Shown in pieces: positions 243 to 29,416 of a stretch of DNA of 64,000 bases. The translations under genes and the position numbers were made by a program. Positions within the stretch are counted from its first letter, which is position 1. Every line of letters starts with the position of its first letter. The stretch spans positions 30,138-94,137 of the forward strand of contig CAYSPB010000001.1 in assembly GCA_964432695.1 (NCBI GenBank). Reading direction: 5' to 3'. The notes beneath the pieces are model-generated. The model saw only the letters and a list, made by a program, of their open reading frames with translations, did not search any database and was not told where the DNA came from. The DNA is from an uncultured Nannocystaceae bacterium. Its GTDB lineage: Bacteria > Myxococcota_A > Polyangia > Nannocystales > Nannocystaceae.

Positions 243-578
243 TCAGGCCGCCTTCGCGAGTGCGTCTTCAACCGAGTCGAAGATCGTGAAGACCTGGTCC
301 AGGCGCGTCAGCTCGAAGATTTTCTTCACCGCTGGACGCAAGCCAGCGAGCGTGACGTCGCCTTTTCCGACGCGAACCTGCTTGAACGTGCCGACCAGGA
401 CCCCCAGGCCCGAGCTGTCGACAAAGTCGACACCTTCGAGGTTGAAGAGGAAGTCGTTGTGGCCTTTCTCCAGAAGACCCGAGAGCTCTTTCTTGAGTGC
501 ACCCGAGCTGAACAGGTCGATGGAGCCCTGGACGGTAACGAGGACGTTGGTTTCTTTGATGTCGACTTCGACGCGCAT
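243..578 (-). CDS. STAS-domain anti-sigma-factor antagonist (SpoIIAA/RsbV/SypA-like)
   Basis: 111-aa ORF with the typical STAS layout and the phosphorylatable-serine motif VDFVDSSGLGVLVG. It is the last gene of the minus-strand operon, 12 nt after the preceding gene. Confidence 0.85.
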   Translation of the reverse strand: MRVEVDIKETNVLVTVQGSIDLFSSGALKKELSGLLEKGHNDFLFNLEGVDFVDSSGLGVLVGTFKQVRVGKGDVTLAGLRPAVKKIFELTRLDQVFTIFDSVEDALAKAA

Positions 579-590
579 TGTGGTGTTCCT

Positions 591-1418
591 TTACGGGTTG
601 GAGCCTCGGGTCATCGCAACGGCTGCGTCGACCAGGGGATAGAGTGACTCTGCGTGTTTGATGTGTTCGACGCTTTCCGCGAATTGCAAGTGGTGGCGGT
701 CGTTGACGCCCAGCGTCTCCAGAATGTCGTTTGTTTTGACCACCTCGACGGTTCCGCCCATGCTGCGGAGAATCTCGGGAACGTCGGTGAGGTAGTACTC
801 GCCCTGCGCGTTGTCGCAGTCGAGCAGTTCGAGGGCCGGGAGCAGCGTGTCGACGCGGAAGCAGTACATGCCCACGTTGATCTCCCGAATCTTCTTCTGC
901 TCGGCGGTGCAGTCCTGCTCTTCGATGACGCGCACGAACTTGCTCTCGTCATCTCGGATGATGCGGCCGGCCGCGGGCGGTGAGTCGAGCTCGATCGTGA
1001 GCAGCGAAGCATCGGCACCTCGCTCGAGCACCGCGGCTCCAAGGTTTCGGACCGACTCGGGGCTCATCATCGGCGCGTCTCCGTAGGCGACGATCACGGC
1101 ACCGCCCATCTCGGCCAGCGTGTCTTTGGCGACCATGACCGCGTGACCGGTTCCGCGCTGCTCGGTCTGGGTGACGTAGCGAAAACCGTCTCCGAGCTCG
1201 GCTTGAACCAGGTCGGCGCGGTAGCCTACGACGCAGCAGACTTCGTCGACGCCGCCATTGCGCAGCGCATCGATGGCGCGCCAGACCATGGGGCGGTCGT
1301 TGACGGGGTGGAGAACCTTCGGCAGGTCCGACTTCATGCGGGACCCTTTGCCGGCTGCCAATACGAGACCTGAAAGCTTCATCGTGTCCGTCGCTCCGAT
1401 ACGGTGTTCATCGGTCAT
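591..1418 (-). CDS. Sugar-1-phosphate nucleotidyltransferase, i.e. the GlmU N-terminal (UDP-GlcNAc pyrophosphorylase) domain only, with no LbH acetyltransferase domain
   Basis: Carries the signature LAAGKGSRMKSDLPKVLHPV, then GTGHAV and YGDAPM motifs. It is only about 275 aa, whereas full GlmU is about 450 aa. The ATG at 1418-1416 overlaps the upstream TGA (1417-1415) as ATGA. The rest of the 531-aa ORF upstream is Arg-rich shadow. An alternative start is the MKLSG ATG at 1382. Confidence 0.8.
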   Translation of the reverse strand: MTDEHRIGATDTMKLSGLVLAAGKGSRMKSDLPKVLHPVNDRPMVWRAIDALRNGGVDEVCCVVGYRADLVQAELGDGFRYVTQTEQRGTGHAVMVAKDTLAEMGGAVIVAYGDAPMMSPESVRNLGAAVLERGADASLLTIELDSPPAAGRIIRDDESKFVRVIEEQDCTAEQKKIREINVGMYCFRVDTLLPALELLDCDNAQGEYYLTDVPEILRSMGGTVEVVKTNDILETLGVNDRHHLQFAESVEHIKHAESLYPLVDAAVAMTRGSNP

Positions 1419-2803
1419 CCGTGGGCCAGCTTGAGCGCCCCGCGCTGGGTGGCCTGAAGCAGCATTTCGCCGACCGCGGCCCAGCTGTAGGGCTGTGCAA
1501 AGGCGCGGAGCGATCCACCCGCGGGACGAGCTTGGGCCGTTTCGAGTGCGGACACGACAGTCTGGGCCAGCTGGGTCACGACGCTGGCCGGGTGTGGGTC
1601 GACCAGCAGCGATCCGAGGGTTGCGTCGTGTTCCTGCACCTGGCGAAGCAGCCAACCCAGGCCCGAGGAGTCCGTGCCCACCGGGATGGCCGCGCAAGAC
1701 ACCGCCTCGAGGATCGAGAGCGGAAACGCCTCGGGCACGAGCGCTGGAAGTACGGCGACGTGGGCGGGGCCCAGGTGCTCGGCGCATCCGACTCGATCCA
1801 GGACACCGACGAAGCTGATCGAGCCGGCGGCCATTCGCGCGCGCTCGGCGTAGTCTCGAGGGGCACCGTTGATGAAGTGCTCCACCGGGTGGATCAAGGC
1901 ATGTCGTCCGGAGTCGACGCCCAGCGTTCTCAGCGGGTCGAGGAAGTCGCTCAGGCTGCCGCGGGTGAGGGCGTCGGCGGCGGCCTGAAGTGCTTCGCCG
2001 TCCTTGCCGCCGCCCGCGAGCCGCAGCTTCGCGTTGGGCACGCTGCGCCGGATCATCGGCCAGGCCGCCAGCAGCGCGTGGATGCCCTTGTCGAGGGTGA
2101 GGCGCCCGGCGTAGGCCACGGTGGGCTCGGCCGCCTTGGTCTGGGGAGAGAATAGCGAGAGGTCGACGCCGGGCGAGACTTCGCACAGCCGCGACTCGTG
2201 CTTGGGGAACAGCTCGACGATGCGCTCGCGAACGGCGTCGTTCAACGCGACCACGGCCGCGGCCGAGTACAGCGCCGCATCGACGCGGGCGGCCAAGGCC
2301 GGGATTCTACGAACGCCGTAGTGCAGTCCGGTGCCGTGGGAGATCACGGCCCAGGCGGTCCCCACCTGCCGCGCGAGGCGGTCCGCGACCTGACACAGCA
2401 GCGCGGTGTGGTTGACCAGGACCACGTCGACGTCGCGCAGCCGCACGATGTCGCGGGAGATCGAGGTCATTCGCGTCACGTAGTCATCCATCTCCTGGGC
2501 GGACCAATCCGCGATGACTCGGCCTCGGGAGAGTTCGGCTCGCGGATACATCACGGGAATCTCGCGGTCGGAGACCGCGTGGATCGTGAGTCGTCCGCCC
2601 GTTGAGCGGAGGTACGCGGTGCTGTTGGTGCCGTGGTTGTGGTGGATGATCGACGCGTTCGGATGCGAGGCGCGAAGGTCCTCGTCGTGGCAAAGCACGT
2701 CGACCGTGTGTCCGTTGCGGGCCAGGGCCTCGGCGAGGTCGCGCGTGTAGATCGCGCTGCCGGAACCGGTGAGGCCGTAGCCGTGAAGGATGAGAACGTT
2801 CAT
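1415..2803 (-). CDS. GT4-family (GT-B, retaining) glycosyltransferase
   Basis: Real start is MNVLILHGYG (ATG 2803-2801), which overlaps the upstream stop as ATGA. Has an EX7E motif (PEAFPLSILEAVSCAAIPVGTD) and an N-terminal glycine-rich GSGSAIY motif. Confidence 0.85.
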   Translation of the reverse strand: MNVLILHGYGLTGSGSAIYTRDLAEALARNGHTVDVLCHDEDLRASHPNASIIHHNHGTNSTAYLRSTGGRLTIHAVSDREIPVMYPRAELSRGRVIADWSAQEMDDYVTRMTSISRDIVRLRDVDVVLVNHTALLCQVADRLARQVGTAWAVISHGTGLHYGVRRIPALAARVDAALYSAAAVVALNDAVRERIVELFPKHESRLCEVSPGVDLSLFSPQTKAAEPTVAYAGRLTLDKGIHALLAAWPMIRRSVPNAKLRLAGGGKDGEALQAAADALTRGSLSDFLDPLRTLGVDSGRHALIHPVEHFINGAPRDYAERARMAAGSISFVGVLDRVGCAEHLGPAHVAVLPALVPEAFPLSILEAVSCAAIPVGTDSSGLGWLLRQVQEHDATLGSLLVDPHPASVVTQLAQTVVSALETAQARPAGGSLRAFAQPYSWAAVGEMLLQATQRGALKLAHG

Positions 2804-4086
2804 GAGGCGGCTCGTGAAGGCGTGGTGGGAAAGGCGTGGAGCAGGGAGAACTCGGTGCGCATGCGGGTCACGTCGAAGTGCCGCTGCACGCGAGTTCGGG
2901 CGGCGCGGCCCCAAACCGCGCGCTGCTGAGGGTTCGTGGCCAGCGTTCGCAGGGCCTCGAGAAGCGCATTGGGATTCCGGCTCACCACGCCACCGGGCGC
3001 GCCGAGGGCCGGATCGGACACCATGCGGCGGACGTCCCCGACGTCGGTCGCAAGGACGGGGATGCCCCGCGCCATGGCTTCGAGCACCGCCAAGGGCTGG
3101 GCCTCCAGATCGCTGGTGAGCACCAGGACCGATGCGTTTGCCAGCGCGTCGGGCATGGCACGTGGCCCCCGCCAGGTCACGGTCGGACTGCGATCGAGCC
3201 GGGCGCGCAGCCGCGCCTCTTCGCACGGCGGGCAGTCGAATGGACCGACTAGCTCACCGCGGATCGTCACATCGCTCGATGCCGCGTCGACGAGGTCCAC
3301 GAAGATGTCGGGACGCTTGATGGGGTTGAGTCGGCCGAGGAAGACGGCGGTGAACCGCTCGGGCGGTGGCGTGGTGCTCGACGGTACTTCCACCCCGTTG
3401 GCGATCACGCGGGCGCGTGCCGGGTCGAGGCCGCGCGCGACCTGGTCGGCCATGCGCTCGGGATACAGCGCCGTGACCATGTCGGCGCCCCGGTAGAGGT
3501 CGTGGCGAATCTGCTCGAAGGTGCCGAGCACGCCTTCGGCCTCGTCCCGCCGGACCATGCGGCCGGACTCGAGAAATGGGCTGCCTGCGCGAAGTTCCTC
3601 CACGTACGAGGCGTGCTCCGACACGATGAGGGGGCAGCCGCGGCGTTGGGCGGCGAGCCCAATCGCGGAAGCCAGGCCCGCACCGATCGCATGCACGACG
3701 CCGCCGGCGGGGATGCGCGCGGCAACGATGCGTGACCAGTCACGGACGCTCTCTTGGCTGAAGTCCGAGGGCTCGTCGACGCCCTCGAGAGACTCTACGG
3801 ACGAGGGGAGCGTGTAGGCCCATGTGTCTTCTGGTGGCAGGGCACCGATTCGAAGCACGCGGGCCGGCATCGAGCCTTGGAGGAGTAGGTCCATCCAGGT
3901 GGAGATGCCGCCCAGGGTCACCGGGTAGGTGCCCTCGAGGACGATCGTGGGTGTGGGTCGAACGAAGCTCACCGGCCACGATCCCTGTAGCGTCGGCTTT
4001 GGAGGCGACCACGGATCGCTGCGATCGAAAACGGGACGCCCCCGCGAGGTCAGGGACCAGGCGGGGGCGGATCGGTGCGTTTCCAT
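2800..4086 (-). CDS. GT4-family glycosyltransferase with a PelF-like N-terminal motif
   Basis: N-terminus has LEGTYPVTLGGISTWMDLL, matching the EGTYP..GG.S.W motif of PelF/DUF3492-type GT4 enzymes (family recalled from memory). Has an EX7E motif (DLEAQPLAVLEAMARGIPVLATDVGD). Start is uncertain: ATG at 4086, or an in-frame GTG at 3972 that would remove an odd R/P/W-rich leader. Confidence 0.8.
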   Translation of the reverse strand: METHRSAPAWSLTSRGRPVFDRSDPWSPPKPTLQGSWPVSFVRPTPTIVLEGTYPVTLGGISTWMDLLLQGSMPARVLRIGALPPEDTWAYTLPSSVESLEGVDEPSDFSQESVRDWSRIVAARIPAGGVVHAIGAGLASAIGLAAQRRGCPLIVSEHASYVEELRAGSPFLESGRMVRRDEAEGVLGTFEQIRHDLYRGADMVTALYPERMADQVARGLDPARARVIANGVEVPSSTTPPPERFTAVFLGRLNPIKRPDIFVDLVDAASSDVTIRGELVGPFDCPPCEEARLRARLDRSPTVTWRGPRAMPDALANASVLVLTSDLEAQPLAVLEAMARGIPVLATDVGDVRRMVSDPALGAPGGVVSRNPNALLEALRTLATNPQQRAVWGRAARTRVQRHFDVTRMRTEFSLLHAFPTTPSRAAS

Positions 4087-4119
4087 CGCGGGCCGCGATG
4101 GGCCAGCACTGAACGAATC

Positions 4120-5301
4120 TCATATCGCGACCGCGAGCAGCGAGAGGTCGTCGGGCGACTCGCGATCCTGCAGCAGCGTGCGTACCGTCAGGTCCACGAC
4201 GTTCTGCAGAGGTTCATCGAGATGGCTCGCAATGAGGTCCGCGAGCCGTGCTTCGCCGAACATCTCTCCATCGACCTCGAGCTCGGTGAGCCCATCGGTG
4301 AAGATGAACAAGCGGTCGCCCGGCTGAAGTGTGGTTTCGCCGTCCTCGAATGGCAGGCCGAGGCCCATGCCCACTGGAGGACCGCCACCGCCTGCAAGGC
4401 GGTCGAGGCTGCCGTCGGCGCGGAACAGCATCGGGGGTGGGTGTCCTCCACAGCAGTACCGCAGCACCCCGGTGCTCCGATCGAGGATGCAGTAGGCGAC
4501 GGTGAGATACGAATCCAGGCCGCGGCTCGAAATCTCATGATCGAGCATCGTGCAGACCTCGGCGGGCCCAGCGATGTCGAATATGTCGCCGACAGAGCGA
4601 CCTTCGAGCAGGGCCGATGCGATCGAGTAGGCCGGCGACAGCGACGTTGCGGCCCACGTCGCGACCAGTGACGCTGCGACCCCGTGTCCGCACACGTCGG
4701 CGACGAAGAAGGCGATCCTGTCGTCGTCGATACGCTGGACGTTGAGAAAGTCGCCTGCGAGTCCCTCGCAGGGTTGATAGGCATACGCTGCAGAAACGCG
4801 CGGAAGCTCGACGGGGTTGGGTGGCAGCAGACCCGCCTGAATCCGGCTCGCACACTCGATCTCTGCTCGCATGCGAGCGTTGGCGGTGAGAAGCTCGCGT
4901 TCGGCTTGCCGAAGACGCGCCAGTCGGCTCACGCGCGTACGGATCTCGGGGATGCGCAGGGGCTTGGGAATGTAGTCGTCGGCACCGCGGCGCAGGCCCG
5001 CTTGAATGTCCTGCGTCGAGCCGAGGGCGCTCGCGAGCAGAATGCGGGGGGCATCGGACCCGATGTTGTCTACGATGTGCGACACCAGGTCGAGTCCGCT
5101 GATGCCCGGCATCATGATGTCGAGCACCGCAACGTCGAACTCGGCGGCTCGTTCGTCGAGGATGGCCTTGGCTTCTTTGCCGTCTTTTGCGACTTCGACG
5201 TCGTAGCCGACCGAGGCCAGCGCCCGGGTGAGGATTTGACGAATGGTCGCCTCATCGTCGGCGATGAGCAGGCGACCGGCAGGCTTGGGGTCGTTGGGCA
5301 T
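4120..5301 (-). CDS. Response-regulator receiver fused to a PP2C/SpoIIE-type serine phosphatase (RsbU-like)
   Basis: N-terminal REC domain (LLIADDE..., VAVLDIMMPGISG, IPKP). C-terminal PP2C motifs are FFVADVCGHGVAASL, LFIFTDGLTE and DDLSLLAVAI. Confidence 0.9.
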   Translation of the reverse strand: MPNDPKPAGRLLIADDEATIRQILTRALASVGYDVEVAKDGKEAKAILDERAAEFDVAVLDIMMPGISGLDLVSHIVDNIGSDAPRILLASALGSTQDIQAGLRRGADDYIPKPLRIPEIRTRVSRLARLRQAERELLTANARMRAEIECASRIQAGLLPPNPVELPRVSAAYAYQPCEGLAGDFLNVQRIDDDRIAFFVADVCGHGVAASLVATWAATSLSPAYSIASALLEGRSVGDIFDIAGPAEVCTMLDHEISSRGLDSYLTVAYCILDRSTGVLRYCCGGHPPPMLFRADGSLDRLAGGGGPPVGMGLGLPFEDGETTLQPGDRLFIFTDGLTELEVDGEMFGEARLADLIASHLDEPLQNVVDLTVRTLLQDRESPDDLSLLAVAI

Positions 5302-5308
5302 GGCGCAC

Positions 5309-5758
5309 CTACGGAAGCGCCTTCTCGAGGATGACCACTTTTCCCAGCGGCTCGATGGTCTCGCGGTAGGAGATCGAGTCGGTCAAACTCTGCATCAAGA
5401 ACAACCCGCGCCCGGACTCCCCGTCCAGATCCGGGACGACGTTCTCGTCGGCCTGGCCGAACGCCTTGTCCGGGTTGGTGTCGTAGACGTAGATCCGCAC
5501 CATCGACTCGGCGCTCTCGAAGACGACCCGCGCGTCCCGTCCGTCCTGGTCGTGGGCGTGCCGAATGACGTTGGAAACGCATTCGGTCAGCGCGAGCATG
5601 AGCCCGAAGCCGACCTCGCCCTCCGCGTCGATGTCGAGCTGTTCCAAGAAGGCGCGGAACTTGTCCCGCACCATTGGGATCGATGCGTATTCGCTGGGGT
5701 ATTCGATCTCTACGCGAATCGCATCATATTCGGGGTCGACCGCACAGTTTGCTGCCAT
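5309..5758 (-). CDS. RsbW/SpoIIAB-like serine protein kinase (anti-sigma-type HATPase)
   Basis: 149 aa. Has an N-box-like ALTECVSNVIRHA and a G-box GESGRGLFLMQSLTD. Lies 7 nt upstream of the REC-PP2C gene. Confidence 0.8.
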   Translation of the reverse strand: MAANCAVDPEYDAIRVEIEYPSEYASIPMVRDKFRAFLEQLDIDAEGEVGFGLMLALTECVSNVIRHAHDQDGRDARVVFESAESMVRIYVYDTNPDKAFGQADENVVPDLDGESGRGLFLMQSLTDSISYRETIEPLGKVVILEKALP

Positions 5759-5818
5759 GAACGTTCCTTCGTGTCTCCTGGTTCTTCGGCCATCAGGACG
5801 CGGCGAACCAGGCTCAGA

Positions 5819-9795: not shown

Positions 9796-9955
9796 GGACG
9801 AGGGTTCCGAATCGATCCATCGGCTTTTCCCGGGGGTACCGCGAGCCCAGATCTGAAACCTTCAAGACTCGAATCGGGCCGCGGGATCTCGAAACGACCC
9901 CTTGCCGGTCGGCTGTCCGATCCACACGAGAGGTTCTCCCCAGGAGGACACCACC

Positions 9956-11803: not shown

Positions 11804-11808
11804 TCGCC

Positions 11809-12753
11809 ATGTACATCATCACAGGCGGCGCAGGCTTCATCGGTTCGCAGCTCGTCCGCGACTTGCTCGCGGAAGGCGAGCGAGTGGTGGTGCTGGACAA
11901 CTTTTCCACGGGGCAGCGGTCGAATCTCGCAGGGCTCGACACCGAGCGGCTCGCGACCATCGAGACGAACATTGCCGATGGCCTCTGGCCGGGCATGTCC
12001 CAAGTGGACCCCTCGTGGGGCAAGCCCAAAGCGATCGTGCACCTTGCGGCCCAGGTCGCGGTGGTGGCTTCGGTCGCCAACCCGCTCGACGATGTGCGGC
12101 TCAACTACGCCACCACGATGCACGTCCTCGAGTACGCGCGCTTCTCGGGGGCACCGCGCATCGTGTTCGCCTCTTCGGCGGCGACGTACGGCAACCTCGA
12201 TACCGTCCCGCTCACCGAAGAGATGGCGCGATGGCCCGTGAGCCCCTACGGCATCAACAAGTTCGGGTCGGAGATGTGCCTTCGGTACTACGCCGAAGTC
12301 CACGGCGTGCCCACGGCGTCGCTTCGATTCTTCAACGTCTACGGACCGCGTCAGGACCCCAGCAACCCATACTCGGGCGTCATCTCGATCTTCATGCAGC
12401 GCGCCCTCGACGGGGAGCGCATCACGATCTTCGGGGATGGCGAGCAGACCCGCGACTTCGTCTACGTCGGCGACGTGTCCCAGGCGATTCGGCGTGCGGC
12501 CTCCGAAGACTTCGGCGGCGACGTGTTCAACGTCGGGACTTCCACCGAAACCACGGTCAACCAGCTCGCGCAGACCATTGCGCGACAGTGCAACAGCACG
12601 TCCGAGATCCTCCACGCGCCTGCACGCAAGGGCGAGATTCTGCGTTCCAGCGCCAACATCTCCGCCGCCCGCGAAAAGCTCGGCTTCGATCCCAAGATGA
12701 GCCTCGAATCGGGCCTGCAGCACACGTTGGACTGGTTTCGCAGCACGCGCTGA
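11809..12753 (+). CDS. NAD-dependent SDR epimerase/dehydratase, probably a UDP-hexose/UDP-HexNAc 4-epimerase
   Basis: Has the Rossmann motif ITGGAGFIGS and a YGINK catalytic Y-x3-K. 314 aa, 5 nt after the glmS stop. Substrate is not determinable from sequence alone. Confidence 0.85.
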   Translation: MYIITGGAGFIGSQLVRDLLAEGERVVVLDNFSTGQRSNLAGLDTERLATIETNIADGLWPGMSQVDPSWGKPKAIVHLAAQVAVVASVANPLDDVRLNYATTMHVLEYARFSGAPRIVFASSAATYGNLDTVPLTEEMARWPVSPYGINKFGSEMCLRYYAEVHGVPTASLRFFNVYGPRQDPSNPYSGVISIFMQRALDGERITIFGDGEQTRDFVYVGDVSQAIRRAASEDFGGDVFNVGTSTETTVNQLAQTIARQCNSTSEILHAPARKGEILRSSANISAAREKLGFDPKMSLESGLQHTLDWFRSTR

Positions 12754-12768
12754 CCCAGATGATCTTCG

Positions 12769-14394
12769 ATGCCTCCCGACGGCACGATCGGCGAACTCGA
12801 TGAACGTCAGCGGGCGTTCGAAGAGCGGCGCGCAGAGACCCGGGAGAAGGTGATCGAAAAAGTCGGGTGGCCGCTCGATGCCTGGGCGGTCGCCGCGACG
12901 CTGGAGAGCTTCGGTCTGCGAGACGTCGATGCCGAGGAGCAGTTCGGCTCCGGGAGCATCTTCCACCTCGCAGAGACCATCTACGAGGAGATTTACAGCG
13001 GGCCTTCGGAGGCGACCGAGCTCAAGGCGATGGAGTCCCTCACGCCGTGGGCCCGCCTCAAGTCGTTCGTCGTGCACTACTGCAAGGGCACGTTGTTCGC
13101 GATGCCCATGGCGACGCAGATCGCCGCGGTACTCATTCTTCGCTACTCGCTGTGGGCGTGGCTCGACTTCTCGAACCTCGAAGCGACGCTGGTGGCGCTG
13201 GGCACGATCGCGAGTTTCGTCGTCACGGGGGGCTTCATTCAGGCGATCGGCCGCGAGGGCACCTTCTACTCCGGGCAGAAGAACTGGAAGCTGCTCGAGG
13301 AGGTCTGTCGTCTCATCATCCTGACGGGCACCGGATTGATGCTCGCGGTCGTGATCGGCTTCTGCGTGTTCAACCTGTTCGTGCCGGTGCTCGCGTGGCG
13401 CTACGCGGTGGTCTCGCTGACCTACTTCGTGCTGCTGTCACCGATGTGGTTGTTTCTCGGCGTGTTGTTCATGCTTCAGGACAACCTCGCGATCGTCATC
13501 ACGACGTCCGTCGGCACCGTCGCCGTGCACCTGATGATGACGTACACCTCGTTCGGGATCTACGCTGCGCACTGGGTCGGCTTGGCCGTGACGAACACGG
13601 TTGCCTGTGGCTACGGCGCGTTCCGCATTCGCAAGCGCCGCAAAGAGCTCGAGAAGCGCTTCGAGAAATCGCTGCTGCCTCGTTCTTCGGTGCTGCTGTA
13701 CATCGTGCTGCCGTTCCTCGTGTACGGGGTGCTGTACTTTACCTTCCTCAATGCCGACCGGATCATCGGCTGGTCGGCGGCGCGGGGGTACTTGCCGCTG
13801 GTGATCTGGTTTCGCACCCCGTACGAGCTGGGCATGGACTGGGCGCTGCTCAGCCTCGTGTTCACGATCGCCGTCCTCGAGTATTCGGTCAACGAGTTCA
13901 GCCGCACGATCATCCCGGTGCAAGAGTCGACGAAGGCTGCCGACTACAAGGAGCACAATCGACACTATCAGCGCTTCTACAACCGGCAGCGCATCATGCT
14001 GGCCGTTGTCGCGGTGATCAGCATCGCCATCACCTACTTTGGCGTGCGGTCGCTGGAGCGCTTCGATCACATCAAGGAGGTGCGTGACTTCTTCGCCAGC
14101 CCGATCACCTATGAGGTGTTCTGGTATGCGGCCATTTCGTACTCCTTGCTCGCGCTGGGCCTACTCAACTCACTGTTCTTTTTCTCGTTGGCCCGCCCGA
14201 ACGTCGTGGTGGCCTGCATTTGGCCGGCGTTGTTGACGAATGTGGTGGTCGGCTACGTCGCCAGTCGCATGATCTCTTTCGAGTACAGCGTGCTCGGCTT
14301 GCTCGCCGGGAGTCTGGTGTTCGCGATTCTCACCTCCCGCCGCGCCGCGACGCTCTTCCGCACGCTCGACTTCTACTACTACTCCGCTTTCTGA
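12769..14394 (+). CDS. Polytopic membrane protein (about 12 TM); candidate polysaccharide exporter from context (PelG/flippase-like role is a guess)
   Basis: 541 aa. A roughly 90-aa cytoplasmic N-terminus is followed by hydrophobic segments to the C-terminus. Sits between the epimerase and the GAF-HD-GYP gene. I recognised no catalytic motif. Confidence 0.6.
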   Translation: MPPDGTIGELDERQRAFEERRAETREKVIEKVGWPLDAWAVAATLESFGLRDVDAEEQFGSGSIFHLAETIYEEIYSGPSEATELKAMESLTPWARLKSFVVHYCKGTLFAMPMATQIAAVLILRYSLWAWLDFSNLEATLVALGTIASFVVTGGFIQAIGREGTFYSGQKNWKLLEEVCRLIILTGTGLMLAVVIGFCVFNLFVPVLAWRYAVVSLTYFVLLSPMWLFLGVLFMLQDNLAIVITTSVGTVAVHLMMTYTSFGIYAAHWVGLAVTNTVACGYGAFRIRKRRKELEKRFEKSLLPRSSVLLYIVLPFLVYGVLYFTFLNADRIIGWSAARGYLPLVIWFRTPYELGMDWALLSLVFTIAVLEYSVNEFSRTIIPVQESTKAADYKEHNRHYQRFYNRQRIMLAVVAVISIAITYFGVRSLERFDHIKEVRDFFASPITYEVFWYAAISYSLLALGLLNSLFFFSLARPNVVVACIWPALLTNVVVGYVASRMISFEYSVLGLLAGSLVFAILTSRRAATLFRTLDFYYYSAF

Positions 14395-14403
14395 GTTCCG
14401 CCA

Positions 14404-15942
14404 ATGAGCTTCTTCCAAGCCGTTGTTCCTCTGTCCGAGAGCGTCGCTCGCCTGCTGACCAAGCAGCGCGGCGAGCCTTCGTTCGAGGACGTGCTCGAAG
14501 CGTTTCGCAAGGAGCTCGACGTGCTCGCGATCGGTTGGTACCGACGCAACCGTGGCTCATATGAGCTGGTCGTCGGCCTGCAGCCCGAGCCTGAACCCGA
14601 GGAGGCCGGGCCGAAGGAAGTTCCCGGTGGGCGGTTCTTTGCCCGCCGAGAGCCGCCCCCGATGCACGAGGAGAACGACCAGCACCCGCTGATCGATGGC
14701 GATGCGGAGCTGCGGCTCCAGCTGCCGGGCAGCGACGACTATCTGGGTCTCAACCTCGTCGGCGCCCTTGCGCGACCGCACCTTGTCACCCCGTTTGCGG
14801 GTGGGCTGCTGGTGATGGGCAGCTTCGCCTCACGCTCGCTGGCCAAGAAGGCCAAGCAGCGCTGGGACGAGAGCGCCGCAACGCTGCAGATCATCGGCAG
14901 GAGTGCGCTCGACCGTGCCGACCACCAAAGTGAAGTGACTCGACTCGAGGGTCGACTGCGCACCGCGAATCGAACCATTGCCTCCGCGCTCGACATGGGC
15001 GCTCTGTTCAAAGCGTTGTTGTCTGTAGCCGCCCGGGCGAGCCGTCACCAAGGGGCCTTCATCGGACGACGCGATGGCGACGGTTTCGTGCTTCGGACCC
15101 AGTACGGCCTCGACGACGTCGTTGGTGGCCTGGTCGGGCAACGTGTCGACGGCACGCTGTTCGACCTCGAGATGGTGATGGACGAGCCGATCATCGTCCC
15201 CAAGGACCTCTCGGAGCTGACGGGGATGGGTGTGGATTCGCTGCTGGCCTTTCCCATCCTCAACGACGGAGAGCTGGCCGGCGTGCTCGGACTGGTGAAC
15301 TCCAAGCGCAAGGCGGGCGTGCAAGACGGCGACTACGGCCTATTGGCGTCGTTCACCGAGCAGATCTCACGGGTGATGGCCCGCGAGATCGAGGTCGTCG
15401 CGTTCGGGAACACCTACTTCGACACGCTGCAGGCGCTGTGTCGCGCCCTCGACTTGGCGCGCGGTTGTGAAGGGCACCACGAGCGCGTCTCCAACCTCGC
15501 GGCTCAGATGGCTGCCGCCGACGGTCTCGACGAACGCAGCGTCGATTTGCTGCGCCGCGCGGGTTTGGTGCACGACGTCGGACTCGTGCAAGCCGCCGGC
15601 GGTTCTCGCGACGTGCAGACCGAGTTCGGTCACCCCACGCTCGGCGCACTTCTGGCTGGCCCGCTGCGCGACGGGGCGGAGCTCGCAGCGCTCATTCGCG
15701 AGCACCACGAGACCGACGACGGCTTCGGGTTTCCCGACGCGCTCGAGCAAGACAACCTGGCGCCGCTCGGGCGGTACCTCGCTTTGTCCGAGTACATCGT
15801 CGAACGCATGACGGGCAACCAGATTTCCGAAGGGCTCGATGCCGACGCGATGCGGGCCGAGCTTCTGCGAGCCGATGCACGCTTCAGCAAGCATCTGCGC
15901 GAGGTGGCAGCCAAGCAGCTGCGTGCACTCAAGGTGGCCTGA
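14404..15942 (+). CDS. GAF-domain protein with a C-terminal variant HD-GYP domain (c-di-GMP phosphodiesterase or receptor)
   Basis: HD-GYP metal-ligand pattern is present: HHERV ... LVHDVGL ... GHPTLGALL ... EHHETDDGFGFPDAL. The usual HDxGK lysine is Leu and GYP reads GFP. A central GAF-like region is present (AFPILNDGELAGVLGLVN). Confidence 0.75.
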   Translation: MSFFQAVVPLSESVARLLTKQRGEPSFEDVLEAFRKELDVLAIGWYRRNRGSYELVVGLQPEPEPEEAGPKEVPGGRFFARREPPPMHEENDQHPLIDGDAELRLQLPGSDDYLGLNLVGALARPHLVTPFAGGLLVMGSFASRSLAKKAKQRWDESAATLQIIGRSALDRADHQSEVTRLEGRLRTANRTIASALDMGALFKALLSVAARASRHQGAFIGRRDGDGFVLRTQYGLDDVVGGLVGQRVDGTLFDLEMVMDEPIIVPKDLSELTGMGVDSLLAFPILNDGELAGVLGLVNSKRKAGVQDGDYGLLASFTEQISRVMAREIEVVAFGNTYFDTLQALCRALDLARGCEGHHERVSNLAAQMAAADGLDERSVDLLRRAGLVHDVGLVQAAGGSRDVQTEFGHPTLGALLAGPLRDGAELAALIREHHETDDGFGFPDALEQDNLAPLGRYLALSEYIVERMTGNQISEGLDADAMRAELLRADARFSKHLREVAAKQLRALKVA

Positions 15943-15945
15943 CCC

Positions 15946-17640
15946 ATGGCGGAGCCCGACCAGGAAAAGCTCTCCGTTCTGTTCACCACCGAGGGCACCT
16001 ACCCGTTCATGGGTGGCGGGGTGAGTACGTGGTGCCACATCCTGTGCGAGTTCCTGCCCGAGATCGACTGGGAGATCTTTGCGGTGGTCGCCGACCCGGG
16101 CGGCGAAGACAAGTACGCCACCCACGAGTTTCCCCAGATTCGCTCGATCATGAAGGTGCCGCTGTGGGGCGCTGAAGAGCAGGCCGAATACATCGACACG
16201 CGACCGTTTCGATTCTCTTTCCGCCGCAAGGTCACCACGACGCAACGGGTCATCAAGACCAAGTTCGTGCCGCTGTTCCAGGAGCTGCTCGAGGGCTTCG
16301 AAAACCCCGGCATCGACATGTGGAAGTACGGCAAGACCGTCCACGAGATCTACAAGTACTTTCAGGCCTACGACTACCGCGAAACCATGCGGTCCGAGGC
16401 TACGTGGAACTGCTGGCGGGACTTTCACAATAACGTTGCTGCCACCGACCCCACGTTTCGCGAATGTGATCGGCCGTGCCTGTTCGATCTCACGACGGCG
16501 CTGCGGTGGATGTTCAACATGTTCATGCCCATCGTCGCGACCATCCCCGAGACGGACGTCAGTCACGCGTCGATCGCCGCGTCCACGGCATTGGCAAACA
16601 TCGTCGCCAAGTTCGAGTACGGCACGCCGTTCTTGCTCACCGACCACGGTGTGTACATTCGCGAGCGTTACATCGCGTGCTCGGCCGCCGAGATGAGCTT
16701 CTTTTGCAAGCGCTTCTTGGTGAAGCTTGCCGGCTTCTACACCAAGCTTTGCTACTTATTCGCCGATCAGATCAGCCCGTGTGCGCACTTCAACGCGCGG
16801 TGGGAGCTGCCGTTCGGATGTGTCCGCGACCGCCCCGAGACCATCGACTTCAGTGATTGGGACGGCACCGGCATCGTGCCCAACATCGGCTCGTTTCCAT
16901 TCATCGAGCCCACGTACAAGGCGCTCGTCGACAAGGACCTCATGGGGGTCTACGAGCAGGAGACCGAGTTTCCCTGGGTGCGAACGATCTACAACGGGGT
17001 GGACTGCGAGAAGTTCAAGCCCGGAGAAAAGCCGGAGCACCTTCGCGGACGGCCGACGTGCGTCGCGCTGGCGCGCGTCTTTCCGCTCAAGGACGTGCTC
17101 ACGATGATCCGCTCGTGTGCCGTCGTGCGGAAGGAACTCGAGAACATCAAGTACATCGTCTACGGCTCGCTCAAGGCCGACCCGCCGTACGTCGAAAAGT
17201 GCAACAAGCTGATCGCCGAGCTCGGTCTCGAAGAGAACTTCGACCTTGCTGGCTATCACTCCAAGCCGGCCGAGGCGTTCTGGGAAGGTGACATCAGCGT
17301 GCTGTCGAGCATCTCGGAGGGTTTCCCGTTCACCGTCCTCGAGAGCATGGCCGCCGGGGTGCCTGTGGTCGGCACTGACGTGGGCGGATGCAAAGAGGCG
17401 ATCGGCACGGGCGCAGACTCGTGCGGCGTCGTGGTGCCGCCGCAGAACCCCGAAGCCTTCGGCCAGGGGGTTCTCAAGATGCTCACCAACGAAGATCTCC
17501 GCCTCGAGATGGCGCGGAAAGGTCGGGAGCGGGTGCTGCGACTCTTCCAGACCTCGACCTCGGTCGATGCCTACGCGGAAAGCTATCGCCGGTTGGCGCA
17601 GGTGAAGCGAGCCCGCAACGCCGCGACCGAAGCCGCCTGA
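15946..17640 (+). CDS. PelF-like GT4 glycosyltransferase (DUF3492-type N-terminal region plus Glycos_transf_1)
   Basis: N-terminus has LFTTEGTYPFMGGGVSTWCHIL. Has an EX7E motif (SISEGFPFTVLESMAAGVPVVGTDVGG). 564 aa. ATG lies 3 nt after the preceding stop. Confidence 0.85.
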   Translation: MAEPDQEKLSVLFTTEGTYPFMGGGVSTWCHILCEFLPEIDWEIFAVVADPGGEDKYATHEFPQIRSIMKVPLWGAEEQAEYIDTRPFRFSFRRKVTTTQRVIKTKFVPLFQELLEGFENPGIDMWKYGKTVHEIYKYFQAYDYRETMRSEATWNCWRDFHNNVAATDPTFRECDRPCLFDLTTALRWMFNMFMPIVATIPETDVSHASIAASTALANIVAKFEYGTPFLLTDHGVYIRERYIACSAAEMSFFCKRFLVKLAGFYTKLCYLFADQISPCAHFNARWELPFGCVRDRPETIDFSDWDGTGIVPNIGSFPFIEPTYKALVDKDLMGVYEQETEFPWVRTIYNGVDCEKFKPGEKPEHLRGRPTCVALARVFPLKDVLTMIRSCAVVRKELENIKYIVYGSLKADPPYVEKCNKLIAELGLEENFDLAGYHSKPAEAFWEGDISVLSSISEGFPFTVLESMAAGVPVVGTDVGGCKEAIGTGADSCGVVVPPQNPEAFGQGVLKMLTNEDLRLEMARKGRERVLRLFQTSTSVDAYAESYRRLAQVKRARNAATEAA

Positions 17641-17662
17641 CCCAGCCGCTTGGAATCCGGCC

Positions 17663-18058
17663 TTGCAGTTCGAAATGGACGGCGTCTCGACGTGGTACTT
17701 GCACTCGATGACACGTCCTTACGGTCCGATTCTGCTCAAGGCGCTCGTGGCCGCTGCGGTCTTCGGTGGCGTCTACGTCCTGCTCGCGCCCGCTTTCAAC
17801 GCGTCGCCGGAGTGGGTTTGCGAGGCGCCGCGTGAAGGCAGCGACGAACCGCGCAAGTGTTACCGAATGGCGGAGTACTGCGAGGGACCGTGCGTTCCAG
17901 CCACGTCTGTCCAGTGCTTCGAACACGGGTTCGTCGGTGCGCTCGACCGTCGACTTGGCCCAGACCGCGACTGCTTCGCGTCAGGCGAGGACTGCAAACG
18001 CGCCCAGGCCAAGAGCAACGAATCGAGCAAGACCGCGTGCGGACCGGCCTGGGAATGA
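17663..18058 (+). CDS. Small membrane-anchored Cys-rich hypothetical protein
   Basis: 131-aa ORF. One TM (ILLKALVAAAVFGGVYVLLAP) is followed by a domain with 8 Cys. An alternative start is MTRPYG at 17708. No family recognised. Confidence 0.5.
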   Translation: MQFEMDGVSTWYLHSMTRPYGPILLKALVAAAVFGGVYVLLAPAFNASPEWVCEAPREGSDEPRKCYRMAEYCEGPCVPATSVQCFEHGFVGALDRRLGPDRDCFASGEDCKRAQAKSNESSKTACGPAWE

Positions 18059-18076
18059 GCGTTTCGCAGCAGGCTG

Positions 18077-18262
18077 CTAGGTTCGGAGGGCCGGGTGTCC
18101 AAGCTCGACACCGAAGTGCGTGTTCACGCTTTGGTACCAAGCTTGCGCTCGCCCCTCGCTGAGGACAGTTCTCAGACGGGGGTAGTCGGAAAGGTCGAAG
18201 CCGATCGTATCGGCGGGATCGAGCGCTGAGCCGAGCGAAATGTCGGCGATGCCGCCGGCCAA
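18077..18262 (-). pseudogene. Possible glutathione-S-transferase C-terminal fragment
   Basis: The translation GGIADISLGSAL..DTIGFDLSDYPRLRTVL resembles the GST C-terminal helix pattern (..ADI.L......g.dl..yP.L). No N-terminal thioredoxin-like half exists upstream. It overlaps the LysR fragment by about 30 nt, so one of the two may be spurious in the overlap. Confidence 0.3.
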
Positions 18263-18655
18263 GCGCTCGTGGCTTCACCCAGGCTTCCTGGTGTCGATCG
18301 GCTGACGCACCCCCACGAGCTTCGGAAGATGCCCGGTCTCGTGCTCGGTGGCTCAGACCGTCTGGGTTGGATGCTGCAGTGCGGCAAGAACCGAGAGCTG
18401 ATCGAGCCGCAGGTCCGTCTGTGATGTCCGTCCGCGAGCGTGATTCTGGACGCGGCGCTGGCGGACCAGGGGATATGTCTGCTTCCTCAACACATCGCCG
18501 CGCCGTACCTCGCACGCGGAGCGTTGGTCCCGGTGCTCGAGAGCGCATGGCTGCCGCCACTGCCTCTGCATGCGGTCTTCCCGAGTCGCAGCGGTGGAAA
18601 CCCGACGCTCGCGGCCTTTCTGGCCGTCGTTCGAGAGGGGCTTCACATTTCGTAG
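18230..18655 (+). pseudogene. LysR-family regulator remnant: C-terminal effector domain only, interrupted by an in-frame TGA
   Basis: One reading frame gives ..ALVASPRLPGVDRLTHPHELRKMPGLVLGGSDRLGWMLQCGKNRELIEPQVRL-TGA(18422-18424)-CPSASVILDAALADQGICLLPQHIAAPYLARGALVPVLE..PLHAVFPSR...LAAFLAVV. This is a typical LysR substrate-binding-domain pattern. The N-terminal HTH (about 150 aa) is absent. Confidence 0.6.
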
Positions 18656-18738
18656 CCCCCGCCGCATCGCCGAGCGCGCGCACCCGGTGGTCGTGACGAG
18701 TGTCGCGAGCCGGCTGCACCTGCTTGCGTAGCGCTGCG

Positions 18739-20861: not shown

Positions 20862-20873
20862 CCCAAGCCGCCC

Positions 20874-22967: not shown

Positions 22968-23057
22968 GGGTCGGATCCGAGAAATAGAGGGGACGTACGC
23001 TCGGACCATTCCGACCGCACGCCCCTCGGGGATGAGTGATGCTGGAAAAAGAAACTC

Positions 23058-24845: not shown

Positions 24846-24958
24846 CGTTCATCCCGTTCCTTCCAAGAGGCTTCCGGGTAGTCGCGATGGCGGCCCTGTT
24901 GTCAGCGGCTACTTCGATCTTTTTGGACGGATCGACCGTTCGGTCGCGCTCGCAAGCG

Positions 24959-26856: not shown

Positions 26857-26859
26857 CGC

Positions 26860-29102: not shown

Positions 29103-29416
29103 CCCCGCTACCCCAGCAAGGATGGTTACGCGCCGGGAGCAGCGGTGTCATCCTCCATTCGCGCAGATACGAAGAGATCCTCGGTTCTGTTCGAGCAGTA
29201 GTTGTGTCGCTCCTCGCGGGGAGATCAGTTCCGTCGATTTTCGAGCTATCTTCGGCCGACCTGGATCCGAACCTGCGGCCGCAACGCGAACGACCGGCCG
29301 GTGAAGATCGACCGCGACACCACGTGCATCGTGCCATCACGGCCGGAGGGTCGCCTGTCTCCCGAGGGCATGCCGCGGCGGGTCGATCCGGCCGCGGCAC
29401 GTCCTCGTCGTCGACG

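Follow-up and report, generated by a model that had tools for sequence, protein, structure and literature searches.

A myxobacterial polysaccharide locus as a probable version of a widespread Pel-type cassette with a GT-C-fold glycosyltransferase

Does a myxobacterial exopolysaccharide locus that mixes Pel-like, Bcs-like and Syp-like genes stand alone, or does it belong to a system found elsewhere? The locus occupies positions 243–18058 of the window, which is the whole 64,000-nucleotide stretch of metagenome-assembled DNA that was analysed, and consists of 14 ORFs with checked coordinates and strands. The layout of two divergent operons described in an earlier note was confirmed from the sequence. 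The operons are separated by a 160-nt intergenic region (9796–9955), read from the sequence and bounded by a minus-strand GTG start at 9795 and the glmS ATG at 9956, and no sigma-70-type promoter and no Rfam family was matched within it. An acidic, secreted-looking protein of 1174 aa is encoded just beyond the left end of the window. Pfam and NCBIfam profiles were searched against all 14 ORFs on both strands, as the earlier note had proposed; the domains it had assigned were present in 13 of the 14, and the ORFs at 7804–9795, 12769–14394 and 17663–18058 gave no family match. Three identifications were revised, the 541-aa protein to PelG-type, the 663-aa protein to GT-C and the short-chain dehydrogenase (SDR) to PelX-like.

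The main PelF-type GT4 (PelF1, 564 aa) is encoded at 15946–17640 on the plus strand and contains a full DUF3492, a GT1 domain and the EX7E motif. It matched NCBIfam PelF at 169.4 bits (cut-off 100) and Pfam DUF3492 at 131 bits, and its orthologues in the related loci L004–L006 are 40–63% identical. The second PelF-type GT4 (PelF2; 2800–4086, minus strand) has a partial DUF3492 with N-terminal EGTYP..GG.STW and EX7E motifs and gave 128.5 bits with NCBIfam PelF (cut-off 100) and 67 bits with Pfam DUF3492; an alternative start at the GTG at 3972, taken from the gene call in locus L087, would give 390 aa. An accessory GT4 of 462 aa without DUF3492 (1415–2803, minus strand) carries Pfam Glyco_trans_4_4 and Glycos_transf_1 domains and the EX7E motif. 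The earlier description of an amino-sugar polysaccharide locus with Pel-like GT4s is upheld.

The protein of 541 aa encoded at 12769–14394 on the plus strand, previously left unassigned as a 12-transmembrane protein, is a divergent PelG-type transporter of the MOP superfamily, as identified from its homologues, an AF2 model and Foldseek. At least 268 homologues were found, some of them named PelG or carrying PF16933, and 13 of 41 aligned relatives matched Pfam PelG; the window's own protein fails this model, which counts against a Pel-type reading. Foldseek matched the AF2 model (pLDDT 83.3) to MATE transporters, WzxE and MurJ. The claim that the locus lacks Wzx is thus untrue at the level of fold, since the PelG-like protein has the MOP/Wzx/MurJ fold. 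It also contains an extra conserved N-terminal helical domain of approximately 90 aa with invariant residues. The assignment as a divergent PelG makes the locus more Pel-like than the earlier note held.

The 663-aa product of 7804–9795 (minus strand) had been described as a polytopic membrane protein; the AF2 model and Foldseek revealed a GT-C fold in a protein without Pfam or NCBIfam family match. The model (pLDDT 87.4, pTM 0.89) shows approximately 14–15 transmembrane helices followed by a C-terminal α/β domain, and the best 22 Foldseek matches in the PDB were all GT-C enzymes, with STT3, DPY19, AftA, ArnT, PglB, ALG9, AglB, Pmt4 and ALG3 represented. On the basis of this model the protein is firmly assigned as a GT-C-fold glycosyltransferase. 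Weak sequence links were also obtained, with the family profile matching the protein O-mannosyltransferase TMEM260 (E 5e-4) and 3 of 63 relatives matching Pfam PMT_2. Residues D/E61, D/E102, R151, K174 and G190 are kept in nearly all lineages sampled.

Relatives of the PelG-like protein led to 80 related loci, of which 51 were classed as long (at least 18 kb). The close relatives of the window locus are all from metagenome-assembled genomes, and the sampling is dominated by Balneolaceae, which supply 38 of the 57 loci tabulated by phylum. PelF1, the PelG-like protein and the GT-C family occur together in 51 of 51 long loci, nearly all of which carry a second DUF3492 GT4, and the GAF-HD-GYP protein is present in 49 of the 51. 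The core of the cassette consists of two PelF-type GT4 enzymes, the divergent PelG-type MOP transporter, the GT-C protein and the GAF-HD-GYP protein. The long loci span Myxococcota, Chloroflexota, Actinomycetota, Bacteroidota, Acidobacteriota, KSB1 and Bdellovibrionota, with shorter loci adding Calditrichota to give at least eight phyla. The pattern also holds phylum by phylum, and a reverse check from distant GT-C relatives again recovered PelF and PelG-like or DUF2194 neighbours. The gene order PelF2-PelF1-PelG-GT-C, with PP2C-REC-GAF/HD-GYP-STAS alongside, was found in Ignavibacteria, KSB1, Cytophagia, Bacteroidota, Anaerolineae and Actinomycetota. What had been taken for a unique mixed locus, with neighbours that might not be conserved, is instead one arrangement of a gene set conserved together across phyla, in which the GT-C is the most distinctive conserved part.

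This distribution makes it highly improbable that the locus is a lineage-specific mosaic, in which chance or recent shuffling has brought together genes of separate processes, with glmS and glmU from housekeeping, a partner switch from stress control and unrelated glycosyltransferases. The occurrence of the core set in 49–51 of the 51 long loci, all from other genomes, indicates more than chance, and in many of the phyla the core operons also include STAS, RsbW and PP2C genes. Co-occurrence across phyla and operon structure refute such a mosaic for the core genes and leave it viable for the add-on genes alone. In its favour, the lineage of the window is the only one with glmS, the BcsB-like gene and a small ORF, and the two divergent operons differ from the single-operon order of other phyla.

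In most phyla the core is joined by PelA-like genes, a DUF2194 deacetylase (57 of 80 loci) and a GH114 hydrolase (51 of 80); the window has none of them. The PelA of Gram-positive bacteria contains a DUF2194 domain (PMC7890745). Some GT-C relatives are fused to a C-terminal coiled coil resembling membrane fusion proteins, which places the GT-C C-terminus outside the cytoplasm and ties it to envelope-spanning export. Both features argue against a product other than exopolysaccharide, as the deacetylase and endo-hydrolase of most versions act on polymers and the coiled coils are export-adaptor-like. If instead the target of glycosylation were a protein, or a lipid or polymer of the envelope, the GT-C would be a PglB/PMT/ArnT/YfhO-like transferase and the GT4s and MOP protein would just prepare and flip its donor. 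The TMEM260 match favours this, as do the protein and lipid glycosyltransferases among the best fold matches (STT3, PglB, DPY19, Pmt4 and ArnT) and the large protein adjoining the left end of the window; the last has no Pfam match and no such Myxococcota-specific neighbour was found among the conserved clusters. Overall this explanation is considered improbable.

A lipid-carrier pathway is harder to dismiss, and is regarded as possible if rather unlikely. The GT4s would build a glycan on polyprenyl phosphate or a glycerolipid, the PelG-like MOP protein would flip it in the manner of Wzx or MurJ, and the GT-C would polymerise the glycan or ligate it to a final acceptor at the outer face, following a Wzx-plus-GT-C logic that is not synthase-dependent. 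Characterised GT-C enzymes use polyprenyl-phosphate-linked donors, which together with the modelled GT-C fold supports this route, and the PelG-like model matches the flippases of lipid-linked glycans as well as MATE transporters. The PelG-like and GT-C genes adjoin or overlap in most phyla, and one variant (L090) also encodes a flippase of the MurJ type and a small GT2 with DUF2304, a pairing of the type that makes polyprenyl-phosphate sugars. Against this, L090 is only one, distantly related locus, and no GT4 enzyme is known to make polyprenyl-phosphate sugars. Neither the window nor the conserved core contains an initiating phosphoglycosyl transferase, Wzy, chain-length regulator or OPX protein. 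The cassette encodes no polyprenyl-phosphate-sugar synthase either, and this counts, with the missing initiating transferase, against the Pel-type reading too.

Further absences weigh on the Pel-type reading. Profile searches of the window found no PelA, PelB, PelC, PelD or PelE, bearing out the earlier note for the four of these that it had named, and no BcsA-type GT2 or ABC transporter, again as it had stated. Although the host is presumably diderm, neither the locus nor its immediate surroundings yielded a component for outer-membrane export. A BcsA or PelDEG set just outside does not explain the locus, as none is present in the left flank and the approximately 13 kb to the right contain unrelated genes.

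The precursor genes and other additions set the lineage of the window apart; it adds glmS, the GlmU uridylyltransferase, the PelX-like 4-epimerase, the third GT4 and the BcsB-like protein. GlmS (glutamine–fructose-6-phosphate transaminase, 615 aa; 9956–11803, plus strand) matched NCBIfam models at 767.8 and 758.7 bits, above their cut-offs; among the 80 loci, only L008 shares with the window a glmS inside the cassette. The GlmU-like sugar-1-phosphate uridylyltransferase (275 aa; 591–1418, minus strand; NCBIfam GlmU 259.6 bits, Pfam NTP_transf_3) comprises the N-terminal pyrophosphorylase half only (model positions 3–236 of 447), without the acetyltransferase domain, and has homologues in 8 of 80 loci, from Myxococcota, Chloroflexota, Actinomycetota and Bdellovibrionota; the accessory GT4 has homologues in 4 of 80. 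The predicted SDR nucleotide-sugar 4-epimerase (314 aa; 11809–12753, plus strand; Pfam Epimerase 181.6 bits) matched PDB entry 4zrm at 221 bits, followed by the PelX entries 6wjb (216 bits) and 6wj9 (213 bits), and in loci of Ignavibacteria, KSB1 and Cytophagia its homologues sit between the two PelF genes.

The BcsB-like periplasmic protein (5819–7807, minus strand) has a signal peptide and a C-terminal transmembrane anchor, and there is a 4-nt overlap between its start and the stop of the GT-C gene. The Pfam BcsB match (65.8 bits, cut-off 21, profile positions 56–378 of 606) upholds the Bcs-like label for the protein itself, but not as part of a conserved system: its only homologue among the 80 loci is in the sister MAG L008, a word-index search gave no relative beyond this, and no PDB sequence was matched. 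It is also unrelated to DUF2194, the family that holds the same position elsewhere. The 131-aa ORF (17663–18058, plus strand), previously counted as a small Cys-rich membrane protein of the locus, lies in a 1.1-kb segment (17634–18734) missing from L008, the closest relative (DNA 86% identical), and none of the 80 loci contains a homologue. The ORF is thus no conserved component of the locus and probably lies outside the system. Like this ORF, the BcsB-like gene and glmS are add-ons of the lineage and stand outside the conserved system.

The claimed Syp-like module was borne out by Pfam and NCBIfam domains. It comprises a single-domain STAS protein of the SpoIIAA/SypA type (111 aa; 243–578, minus strand; Pfam STAS 84.5 bits, NCBIfam anti-sigma factor antagonist 88.6 bits) with a DSSG phosphorylation motif (S56) read from the translation, an RsbW/SpoIIAB-like serine kinase (149 aa; 5309–5758, minus strand; Pfam HATPase_c_2 60.2 bits, NCBIfam RsbW/SpoIIAB matches weak and below cut-off) and a fusion of REC with a SpoIIE-type PP2C serine phosphatase (393 aa; 4120–5301, minus strand; Pfam SpoIIE 141.5 and Response_reg 83.5 bits). 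STAS, RsbW-like and PP2C(-REC) genes recur outside Balneolaceae, often joining the core, with STAS genes in the cassettes of Chloroflexota, Actinomycetota, Ignavibacteria, Bdellovibrionota and Myxococcota. The cytoplasmic GAF-HD-GYP-like protein (512 aa; 14404–15942, plus strand; Pfam GAF and HD/HD_5) has the HD-GYP enzymes 4mcw and 4r8z as closest PDB sequence matches. Its family keeps H, HD, H and HHE.DG.G.P and departs from the canonical HDxGK/GYP, as the HDxGK Lys is missing and the last Asp is replaced by Glu, a departure that counts against the main reading; the HD-GYP assignment is based on the PDB matches and the conserved family-wide metal-ligand pattern.

Taken together, the region probably represents a widespread cassette for a Pel-type polysaccharide in its myxobacterial version, with a GT-C acting outside the membrane. 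GlmS, the GlmU N-terminal half and the PelX-like epimerase would raise the supply of UDP-GlcNAc and UDP-GalNAc, and the retaining GT4s, with PelF1 as main polymerase, would work on the inner side of the membrane to produce an α-linked chain rich in HexNAc; judged from the precursor genes and the PelX and PelF similarities only, the polymer is probably rich in GalNAc/GlcNAc. The PelG-like protein would translocate the chain across the membrane, either as such or linked to a lipid. We infer that the GT-C works at the outer face, where it may transfer the chain from a lipid carrier or add sugars to it, while the BcsB-like protein may handle the chain in the periplasm. Output would be controlled post-translationally, with a histidine-kinase signal reaching the REC-PP2C phosphatase, which would dephosphorylate STAS in opposition to the RsbW-like kinase; free STAS may then have as its target either the GAF-HD-GYP protein or the conserved N-terminal PelG domain. 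Such partner switching is supported by L004 and L007, where a single SypE-like protein of 583 aa unites kinase, REC and PP2C domains and its gene adjoins that for STAS.

Neither the cassette nor this component combination was found described in targeted literature searches, in agreement with the earlier view that the combination differs from described secretion pathways. Compared with other versions of the cassette, the window lacks the PelA-like DUF2194 and GH114 genes and contains glmS and the BcsB-like gene. Compared with classical Pel, it lacks PelA, PelB, PelC, PelD and PelE while having PelF-type GT4s, a divergent PelG and a PelX-like SDR, and the GT-C would hold the place that PelD and PelE occupy in classical Pel complexes.

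The gene content of the locus was examined by running Pfam and NCBIfam profiles on its 14 proteins. The ORF map and translations reproduced the layout claimed in the earlier note, with two gene sets diverging from a 160-nt spacer (9796-9955), and the domain calls made there were all confirmed. The plus-strand set comprises GlmS (9956-11803), an SDR epimerase (11809-12753), a 541-aa membrane protein (12769-14394), a GAF-HD protein (14404-15942), a full-length DUF3492 GT4, here called PelF1 (15946-17640), and a 131-aa ORF (17663-18058). On the minus strand lie a 663-aa membrane protein (7804-9795), a BcsB-family protein (5819-7807; PF03170, 65.8 bits against a cut-off of 21), an RsbW-like kinase (5309-5758), a REC-PP2C protein (4120-5301), a second DUF3492 GT4, PelF2 (2800-4086), a plain GT4 (1415-2803), a GlmU-like protein consisting of the N-terminal uridylyltransferase half only (591-1418) and a STAS protein (243-578) with a DSSG serine motif in its translation. 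The 663-aa protein, the 541-aa protein and the 131-aa ORF gave no family match, and PF16933, the Pfam family of the 12-TM MOP/PST-type inner-membrane protein PelG, was not detected in the 541-aa protein at E ≤ 0.01. PelF1 and PelF2 are both cytoplasmic GT4 enzymes with the N-terminal DUF3492 domain that defines PelF, and both exceed the cut-off of 100 bits for the NCBIfam PelF equivalog (169.4 bits for PelF1, with 131 bits for DUF3492; 128.5 and 67 bits for PelF2). The EX7E motif is kept by all three GT4s of the window. The closest PDB sequences to the SDR protein are the UDP-hexose 4-epimerase 4zrm, followed by the PelX entries 6wjb (216 bits) and 6wj9 (213 bits). A search of the whole window with Rfam gave zero matches, so a glmS ribozyme is absent, and a sigma-70 promoter scan of the divergent spacer (9796-9955) gave nothing.

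The 541-aa membrane protein has at least 268 homologues, many of which carry the Pfam PelG domain or PelG as their NCBI name, and it is 40-45% identical to proteins with PF16933 or the PelG name. Pfam PelG was matched by 13 of 41 aligned relatives, with a best E-value of 8.6e-12. The AF2 model of the protein (pLDDT 83) matches members of the MOP superfamily, including MATE transporters and the flippases WzxE (for lipid III) and MurJ (for lipid II). On balance the protein is taken to represent a family that is sister to PelG. At its N-terminus it has an additional helical domain of approximately 90 residues (residues 1-90, window 12769-13050) with many invariant positions, among them P35, V41, A42, A43, E46, S47, G49, R51 and D54. 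To our knowledge classical PelG is without such a domain, at which PelF or a regulator might dock.

A word-index homology search with the 663-aa membrane protein returned near-identical sequences only, while a full HMMER search recovered its family, which comprises 198 representative clusters with proteins of comparable length. The AF2 model of this protein (pLDDT 87.4, pTM 0.89) was compared with the PDB using Foldseek, and ranks 1-22 were all GT-C enzymes, with E-values of 8e-6 to 3e-2 and folds that included STT3, DPY19, AftA, ArnT, PglB, ALG9, AglB, Pmt4 and ALG3. The highest TM-score, 0.55, was to ArnT. The family profile weakly matched the O-mannosyltransferase TMEM260, and a few family members matched Pfam PMT_2. 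Nearly all lineages sampled have acidic residues at positions 61 and 102, along with R151, K174 and G190. Known GT-C enzymes have a catalytic acidic residue in the first extracytoplasmic loop, a role for which either acidic position may be a candidate. An apparent loss of conserved residues in the window protein (D165R, R263S and E271T relative to alignment A1) was dropped, since a phylum-balanced alignment left these positions unconserved outside one subclade.

In some relatives of the GT-C protein the C-terminus continues into a long coiled-coil domain resembling membrane fusion proteins (MFP). This places the C-terminal domain of the GT-C enzyme on the extracytoplasmic side, where known GT-C enzymes also have it. 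The fused members are P0134 (1379 aa), P0137 (1264 aa) and a gene at 620-4759 of L088, the locus of a distant GT-C relative; their match to CzcB_C is weak. Two DUF2194 genes and a GH114-like gene come after the fusion gene in L088. These observations hint at a physical link between the GT-C enzyme and an export structure that spans the envelope. A 556-aa protein, P0213, matches the C-terminal halves of the GT-C membrane region and of PelF1, in this order; it may be a genuine fusion, or else result from misassembly or a frameshift.

The conservation of the locus was assessed by scanning the PelG-like alignment against one genome per species, which gave 265 relatives. Eighty loci were taken from Myxococcota, Chloroflexota, Actinomycetota, Bacteroidota (Balneolaceae, Ignavibacteria, Kryptonia and Cytophagia), Acidobacteriota, KSB1, Calditrichota and Bdellovibrionota, and their six-frame ORFs were searched with HMMs and with the window proteins. 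Counts are given for the 51 loci of at least 18 kb, from a sample in which Balneolaceae predominate and most relatives are metagenome-assembled genomes (MAGs). The GT-C family and PelF1 were present in every one of the 51 long loci, the GAF-HD protein in 49 and a gene assigned as PelF2 in 42. As most loci lacking a PelF2 assignment contain a pair of PelF1-type genes, hardly any locus is without a second DUF3492 GT4. The locus is one arrangement of a conserved cross-phylum cassette, the core of which consists of two PelF-type GT4s, a PelG-like MOP protein, a GT-C-fold enzyme and a GAF-HD-GYP protein. Outside Balneolaceae a STAS/RsbW/PP2C(-REC) set recurs with this core, and in most phyla PelA-like genes do so. 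The order of the genes is conserved, in two recurring forms: RsbW-PelF2-(SDR)-PelF1-PelG-GT-C-PP2C-REC-GAF/HD-GYP-STAS, and one in which the regulatory block comes first.

Clustering of the unassigned ORFs revealed a GH114 protein of approximately 287 aa in 51 of the 80 loci, GH114 being the Pfam family of the PelA hydrolase domain, and a DUF2194 protein of approximately 1300 aa in 57 of the 80. DUF2194 is a domain of the Gram-positive PelA_DA protein (PMC7890745), and its gene was present in all sampled lineages with long loci except Myxococcota and Actinomycetota. When the search was started in reverse from distant GT-C relatives the same neighbours were recovered (L088 and a second such locus, L090). 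In L090 the region 995-16236 contains PelF1, two unknown genes, a PelG-like gene and two GT-C paralogues, followed by ATP-grasp, CE4 deacetylase, B12/radical-SAM, MurJ-type flippase, 242-aa GT2 and DUF2304 genes; the product of this variant may be a modified polymer, and the variant may also provide the GT-C enzyme with a lipid-linked sugar donor. The second PelF of Balneolaceae (for example at 7254-8435 of the Balneolaceae locus L005) is approximately 390 aa long, with DUF3492 and a weak Glyco_transf_4 match and no GT1 C-terminal domain, and may be a non-catalytic partner.

The closest PDB sequences to the GAF-HD protein are the HD-GYP enzymes PmGH (4mcw) and PA4781 (4r8z). HD-GYP c-di-GMP phosphodiesterases are characterised by H..HD..H..HH..D metal ligands, the lysine of HDxGK and the GYP motif. 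The family of the GAF-HD protein retains the H, HD, H and HHE.DG.G.P residues, lacks that lysine, reads GFP, GYP or GTP where the GYP motif is expected and has the last Asp replaced by Glu. The protein carries an HD-GYP-type domain in place of GGDEF, and no obvious transmembrane segment was read from its sequence. In many phyla the gene for it is flanked by those for PP2C/REC on one side and STAS on the other. By domain content, the STAS protein with its phosphorylatable serine forms a Syp-type partner switch together with the RsbW-like kinase and the REC-PP2C protein enclosed in the locus. The Polyangiales relative L004 combines the three enzyme domains in one SypE-like protein. In Balneolaceae loci REC-containing proteins take the place of the partner-switch genes. 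The window PP2C matches the SiaA model weakly, with 56.6 bits against a cut-off of 700. No sigma factor is encoded in the locus, and, following the logic of the SiaABCD system, the target of the switch would most plausibly be the HD-GYP protein. The mode of action of SypA in Vibrio fischeri was still open in a 2015 study (PMC4517449), and an HD-GYP protein embedded among partner-switching genes offers a candidate target for STAS-only proteins.

The BcsB-like protein was found in one of the 51 long loci, that of the sister Myxococcota MAG (L008), and the same holds for glmS. The BcsB match of 5819-7807 covers the first half only (profile positions 56-378 of 606), and a signal peptide and a C-terminal transmembrane anchor were read from the sequence. 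A word-index homology search returned near-identical sequences only, and a sequence search of the PDB gave zero relatives, BcsB entries included. The gene directly follows the GT-C gene in the window, a position held by a DUF2194 gene in L005 and L088; that the BcsB-like protein is a diverged DUF2194/PelA_DA protein was ruled out by an hhalign probability of 0.2%.

None of the 14 proteins of the locus has a GGDEF domain such as that of PelD, a membrane-anchored GAF protein with a degenerate GGDEF. In Pel systems PelE is a small TM protein with TPRs, PelB joins TPRs to a porin and PelC forms a lipoprotein ring; no TPR, porin or PelC-type match was obtained in the locus, in the next ~13 kb to the right or in the left flank. 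PelA supplies deacetylase (CE4, or DUF2194 in Gram-positives) and α-1,4-N-acetylgalactosaminidase (GH114/GH166-type) activities. DUF2194 and GH114 HMMs built from related loci gave nothing significant for PelA in the 64-kb window or in L087, an identical contig that extends beyond its left end. An ORF of approximately 1842 codons with high third-position GC (57166-62691, plus strand) gave a marginal DUF2194 E-value of 0.0045, which is regarded as noise. No GT2 or PilZ match that would indicate BcsA was found in the locus and flanks, and Pfam and NCBIfam revealed no phosphoglycosyl transferase, Wzy, Wzz or Wza domains among the locus proteins, so that the Wzx-like fold of the PelG-like protein is the sole likeness to the Wzx/Wzy pathway. 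The earlier note had raised a BcsA or PelDEG set encoded just outside the window as an explanation of the locus; this was checked and ruled out for both flanks, as neither L087 on the left nor the next ~13 kb on the right contains such a set. The right flank encodes CarD, PSCyt1 proteins, a Ser/Thr kinase and an M17 peptidase, unrelated to the locus. Just left of window position 1, on the strand of the minus operon, L087 encodes an acidic protein of 1174 aa (L087 15224-18748), whose gene starts 305 bp past the STAS gene and is followed by a further ORF. This protein has no Pfam match and could be a surface or secreted protein tied to the locus.

Contigs identical to the window were found in metagenomes only. 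The closest named genome is the "Myxococcota bacterium" MAG that contains L008, with 86% DNA identity, and the next is an uncultured Polyangiales MAG (L004/L007). Two segments of the window are missing from L008, one of 1.1 kb (17634-18734) and one of 8.5 kb (20862-29412), and both differences are probably recent insertions or deletions. As the shorter segment includes the 131-aa ORF, that ORF is not a conserved member of the locus. The longer one encodes two PSCyt1-domain proteins, a 459-aa ORF without a family and a Ser/Thr kinase. Further right, the ORF at 32668-34521 (minus strand) resembles, with an E-value of 2e-24, a group of clustered proteins of ~527 aa that occur close to the cassette in seven loci from several phyla.

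From the precursor genes and the similarity to PelX and PelF we infer an α-linked polymer rich in GalNAc and GlcNAc. The Pel product, a partially de-N-acetylated α-1,4-GalNAc polymer, would fit indirectly through GlmS, the GlmU N-terminal half, the PelX-like epimerase and the retaining GT4s. The PelG-like protein would export the polymer and the GT-C enzyme would work on the outer face. The partner switch would act most plausibly on the syntenic HD-GYP protein, or else on the conserved N-terminal domain of the PelG-like protein, and switch and target together would stand in place of PelD. The main rival is that the pathway may be truly lipid-linked, following flippase-plus-GT-C logic. Characterised GT-C enzymes use lipid-linked donors; a phosphoglycosyl transferase and a polyprenyl-phosphate-sugar synthase are both missing from the cassette core. 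Most of the evidence is common to this rival and to PelG-type export with the GT-C enzyme on the outer face, and the two differ in export chemistry only. A hybrid fourth route between synthase-dependent and Wzx/Wzy export, in which PelF/PelG-type polymers would not be made in a purely synthase-dependent way and the chain would be built on a lipid or passed to one, flipped by the PelG-like protein and finished outside by the GT-C enzyme through transfer, polymerisation or anchoring, seems rather unlikely. We know of no settled mechanism for Pel priming and inner-membrane crossing, nor of a lipid substrate for PelG, which has a flippase fold; if true, the hybrid route would hint at how classical Pel crosses the inner membrane.

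A Pel-type cassette that lacks PelD and PelE and has a GT-C-fold enzyme in all 51 long loci points to lipid-linked chemistry on the outer face, which is testable. The cassette marks a widespread polysaccharide system whose carriers are environmentally abundant (Balneolaceae, Anaerolineae, Ignavibacteria, Acidimicrobiales and Polyangiales), and surveys based on Pel, Bcs or Pga may overlook or mislabel them. The published pel-locus surveys consulted are silent on an arrangement of this kind, and targeted literature searches found no description of the cassette.

When the locus was compared with known systems, the likeness to BcsA-BcsB was found to consist of a BcsB-family periplasmic protein that has a signal peptide and a C-terminal transmembrane anchor and whose gene start overlaps the stop of a polytopic membrane glycosyltransferase gene by 4 nt. 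The partner in the window is however a GT-C enzyme and not a GT2 BcsA with PilZ, and the BcsB-like gene occurs in this lineage only. Three-component GT-C systems combine an Und-P-sugar synthase of the GT2 type with a flippase and a GT-C enzyme (for example ArnC/ArnEF/ArnT and CsbB/GtcA/YfhO). The cassette shares with them the pairing of a GT-C-fold enzyme with a flippase-fold membrane transporter, and L090 additionally has the small GT2 with DUF2304 and a MurJ-like protein. The cassette core differs in having no GT2 polyprenyl-phosphate-sugar synthase, a PelG-like transporter and PelF-type GT4s in the cytoplasm. SiaABCD of P. aeruginosa consists of the PP2C SiaA, the kinase SiaB, the STAS-like SiaC and the diguanylate cyclase SiaD, and is a partner switch that controls matrix polysaccharide with a c-di-GMP-metabolising enzyme as its output. 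The likeness of the cassette to it comes from gene context, and the putative output is an HD-GYP-type hydrolase rather than a GGDEF cyclase.

Syp is a Wzx/Wzy-type locus. The window shares with the SypA (STAS) and SypE (RsbW-like kinase-REC-PP2C) proteins of Vibrio fischeri (PMC4517449, PMC10120452) a STAS protein bearing a phosphorylatable serine motif, genes for an RsbW-like kinase and a REC-PP2C phosphatase within a polysaccharide locus, and the absence of a sigma factor gene there. The biosynthetic genes are unrelated, the kinase and phosphatase are two genes in the window, and the GAF-HD-GYP gene is syntenic with the switch. Pseudomonas aeruginosa pelABCDEFG with pelX has in common with the window a PelF above the NCBIfam cut-off, a PelG-like protein, a PelX-like epimerase and a GalNAc/GlcNAc-rich product, which is predicted for the window. 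The window differs in having no PelA-PelE, outer-membrane porin or TPR scaffold, and in its extra GT-C enzyme, BcsB-like protein, HD-GYP protein and partner switch. Among known systems the Gram-positive pelDEA_DA FG type of Bacillus cereus ATCC 10987 (PMC7112168, PMC7890745) comes closest. A DUF3492 PelF-type GT4, a distantly related PelG-like MOP membrane protein, a UDP-hexose/HexNAc 4-epimerase and a GAF-containing nucleotide-signalling protein with a predicted role in regulation are common to both; most versions of the cassette also share the DUF2194 PelA_DA-like protein and a separate GH114 PelA_H-like hydrolase, whereas both PelA-like genes are missing from the version in the window. In contrast to the Gram-positive system the cassette is without PelD, a TM-GAF-GGDEF receptor, and PelE, and its PelG-like protein, a distant sister of PelG, has the additional domain at the N-terminus. 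The cassette also encodes a GT-C-fold enzyme, another PelF paralogue, a partner switch and, as its GAF protein, a soluble GAF-HD-GYP protein.
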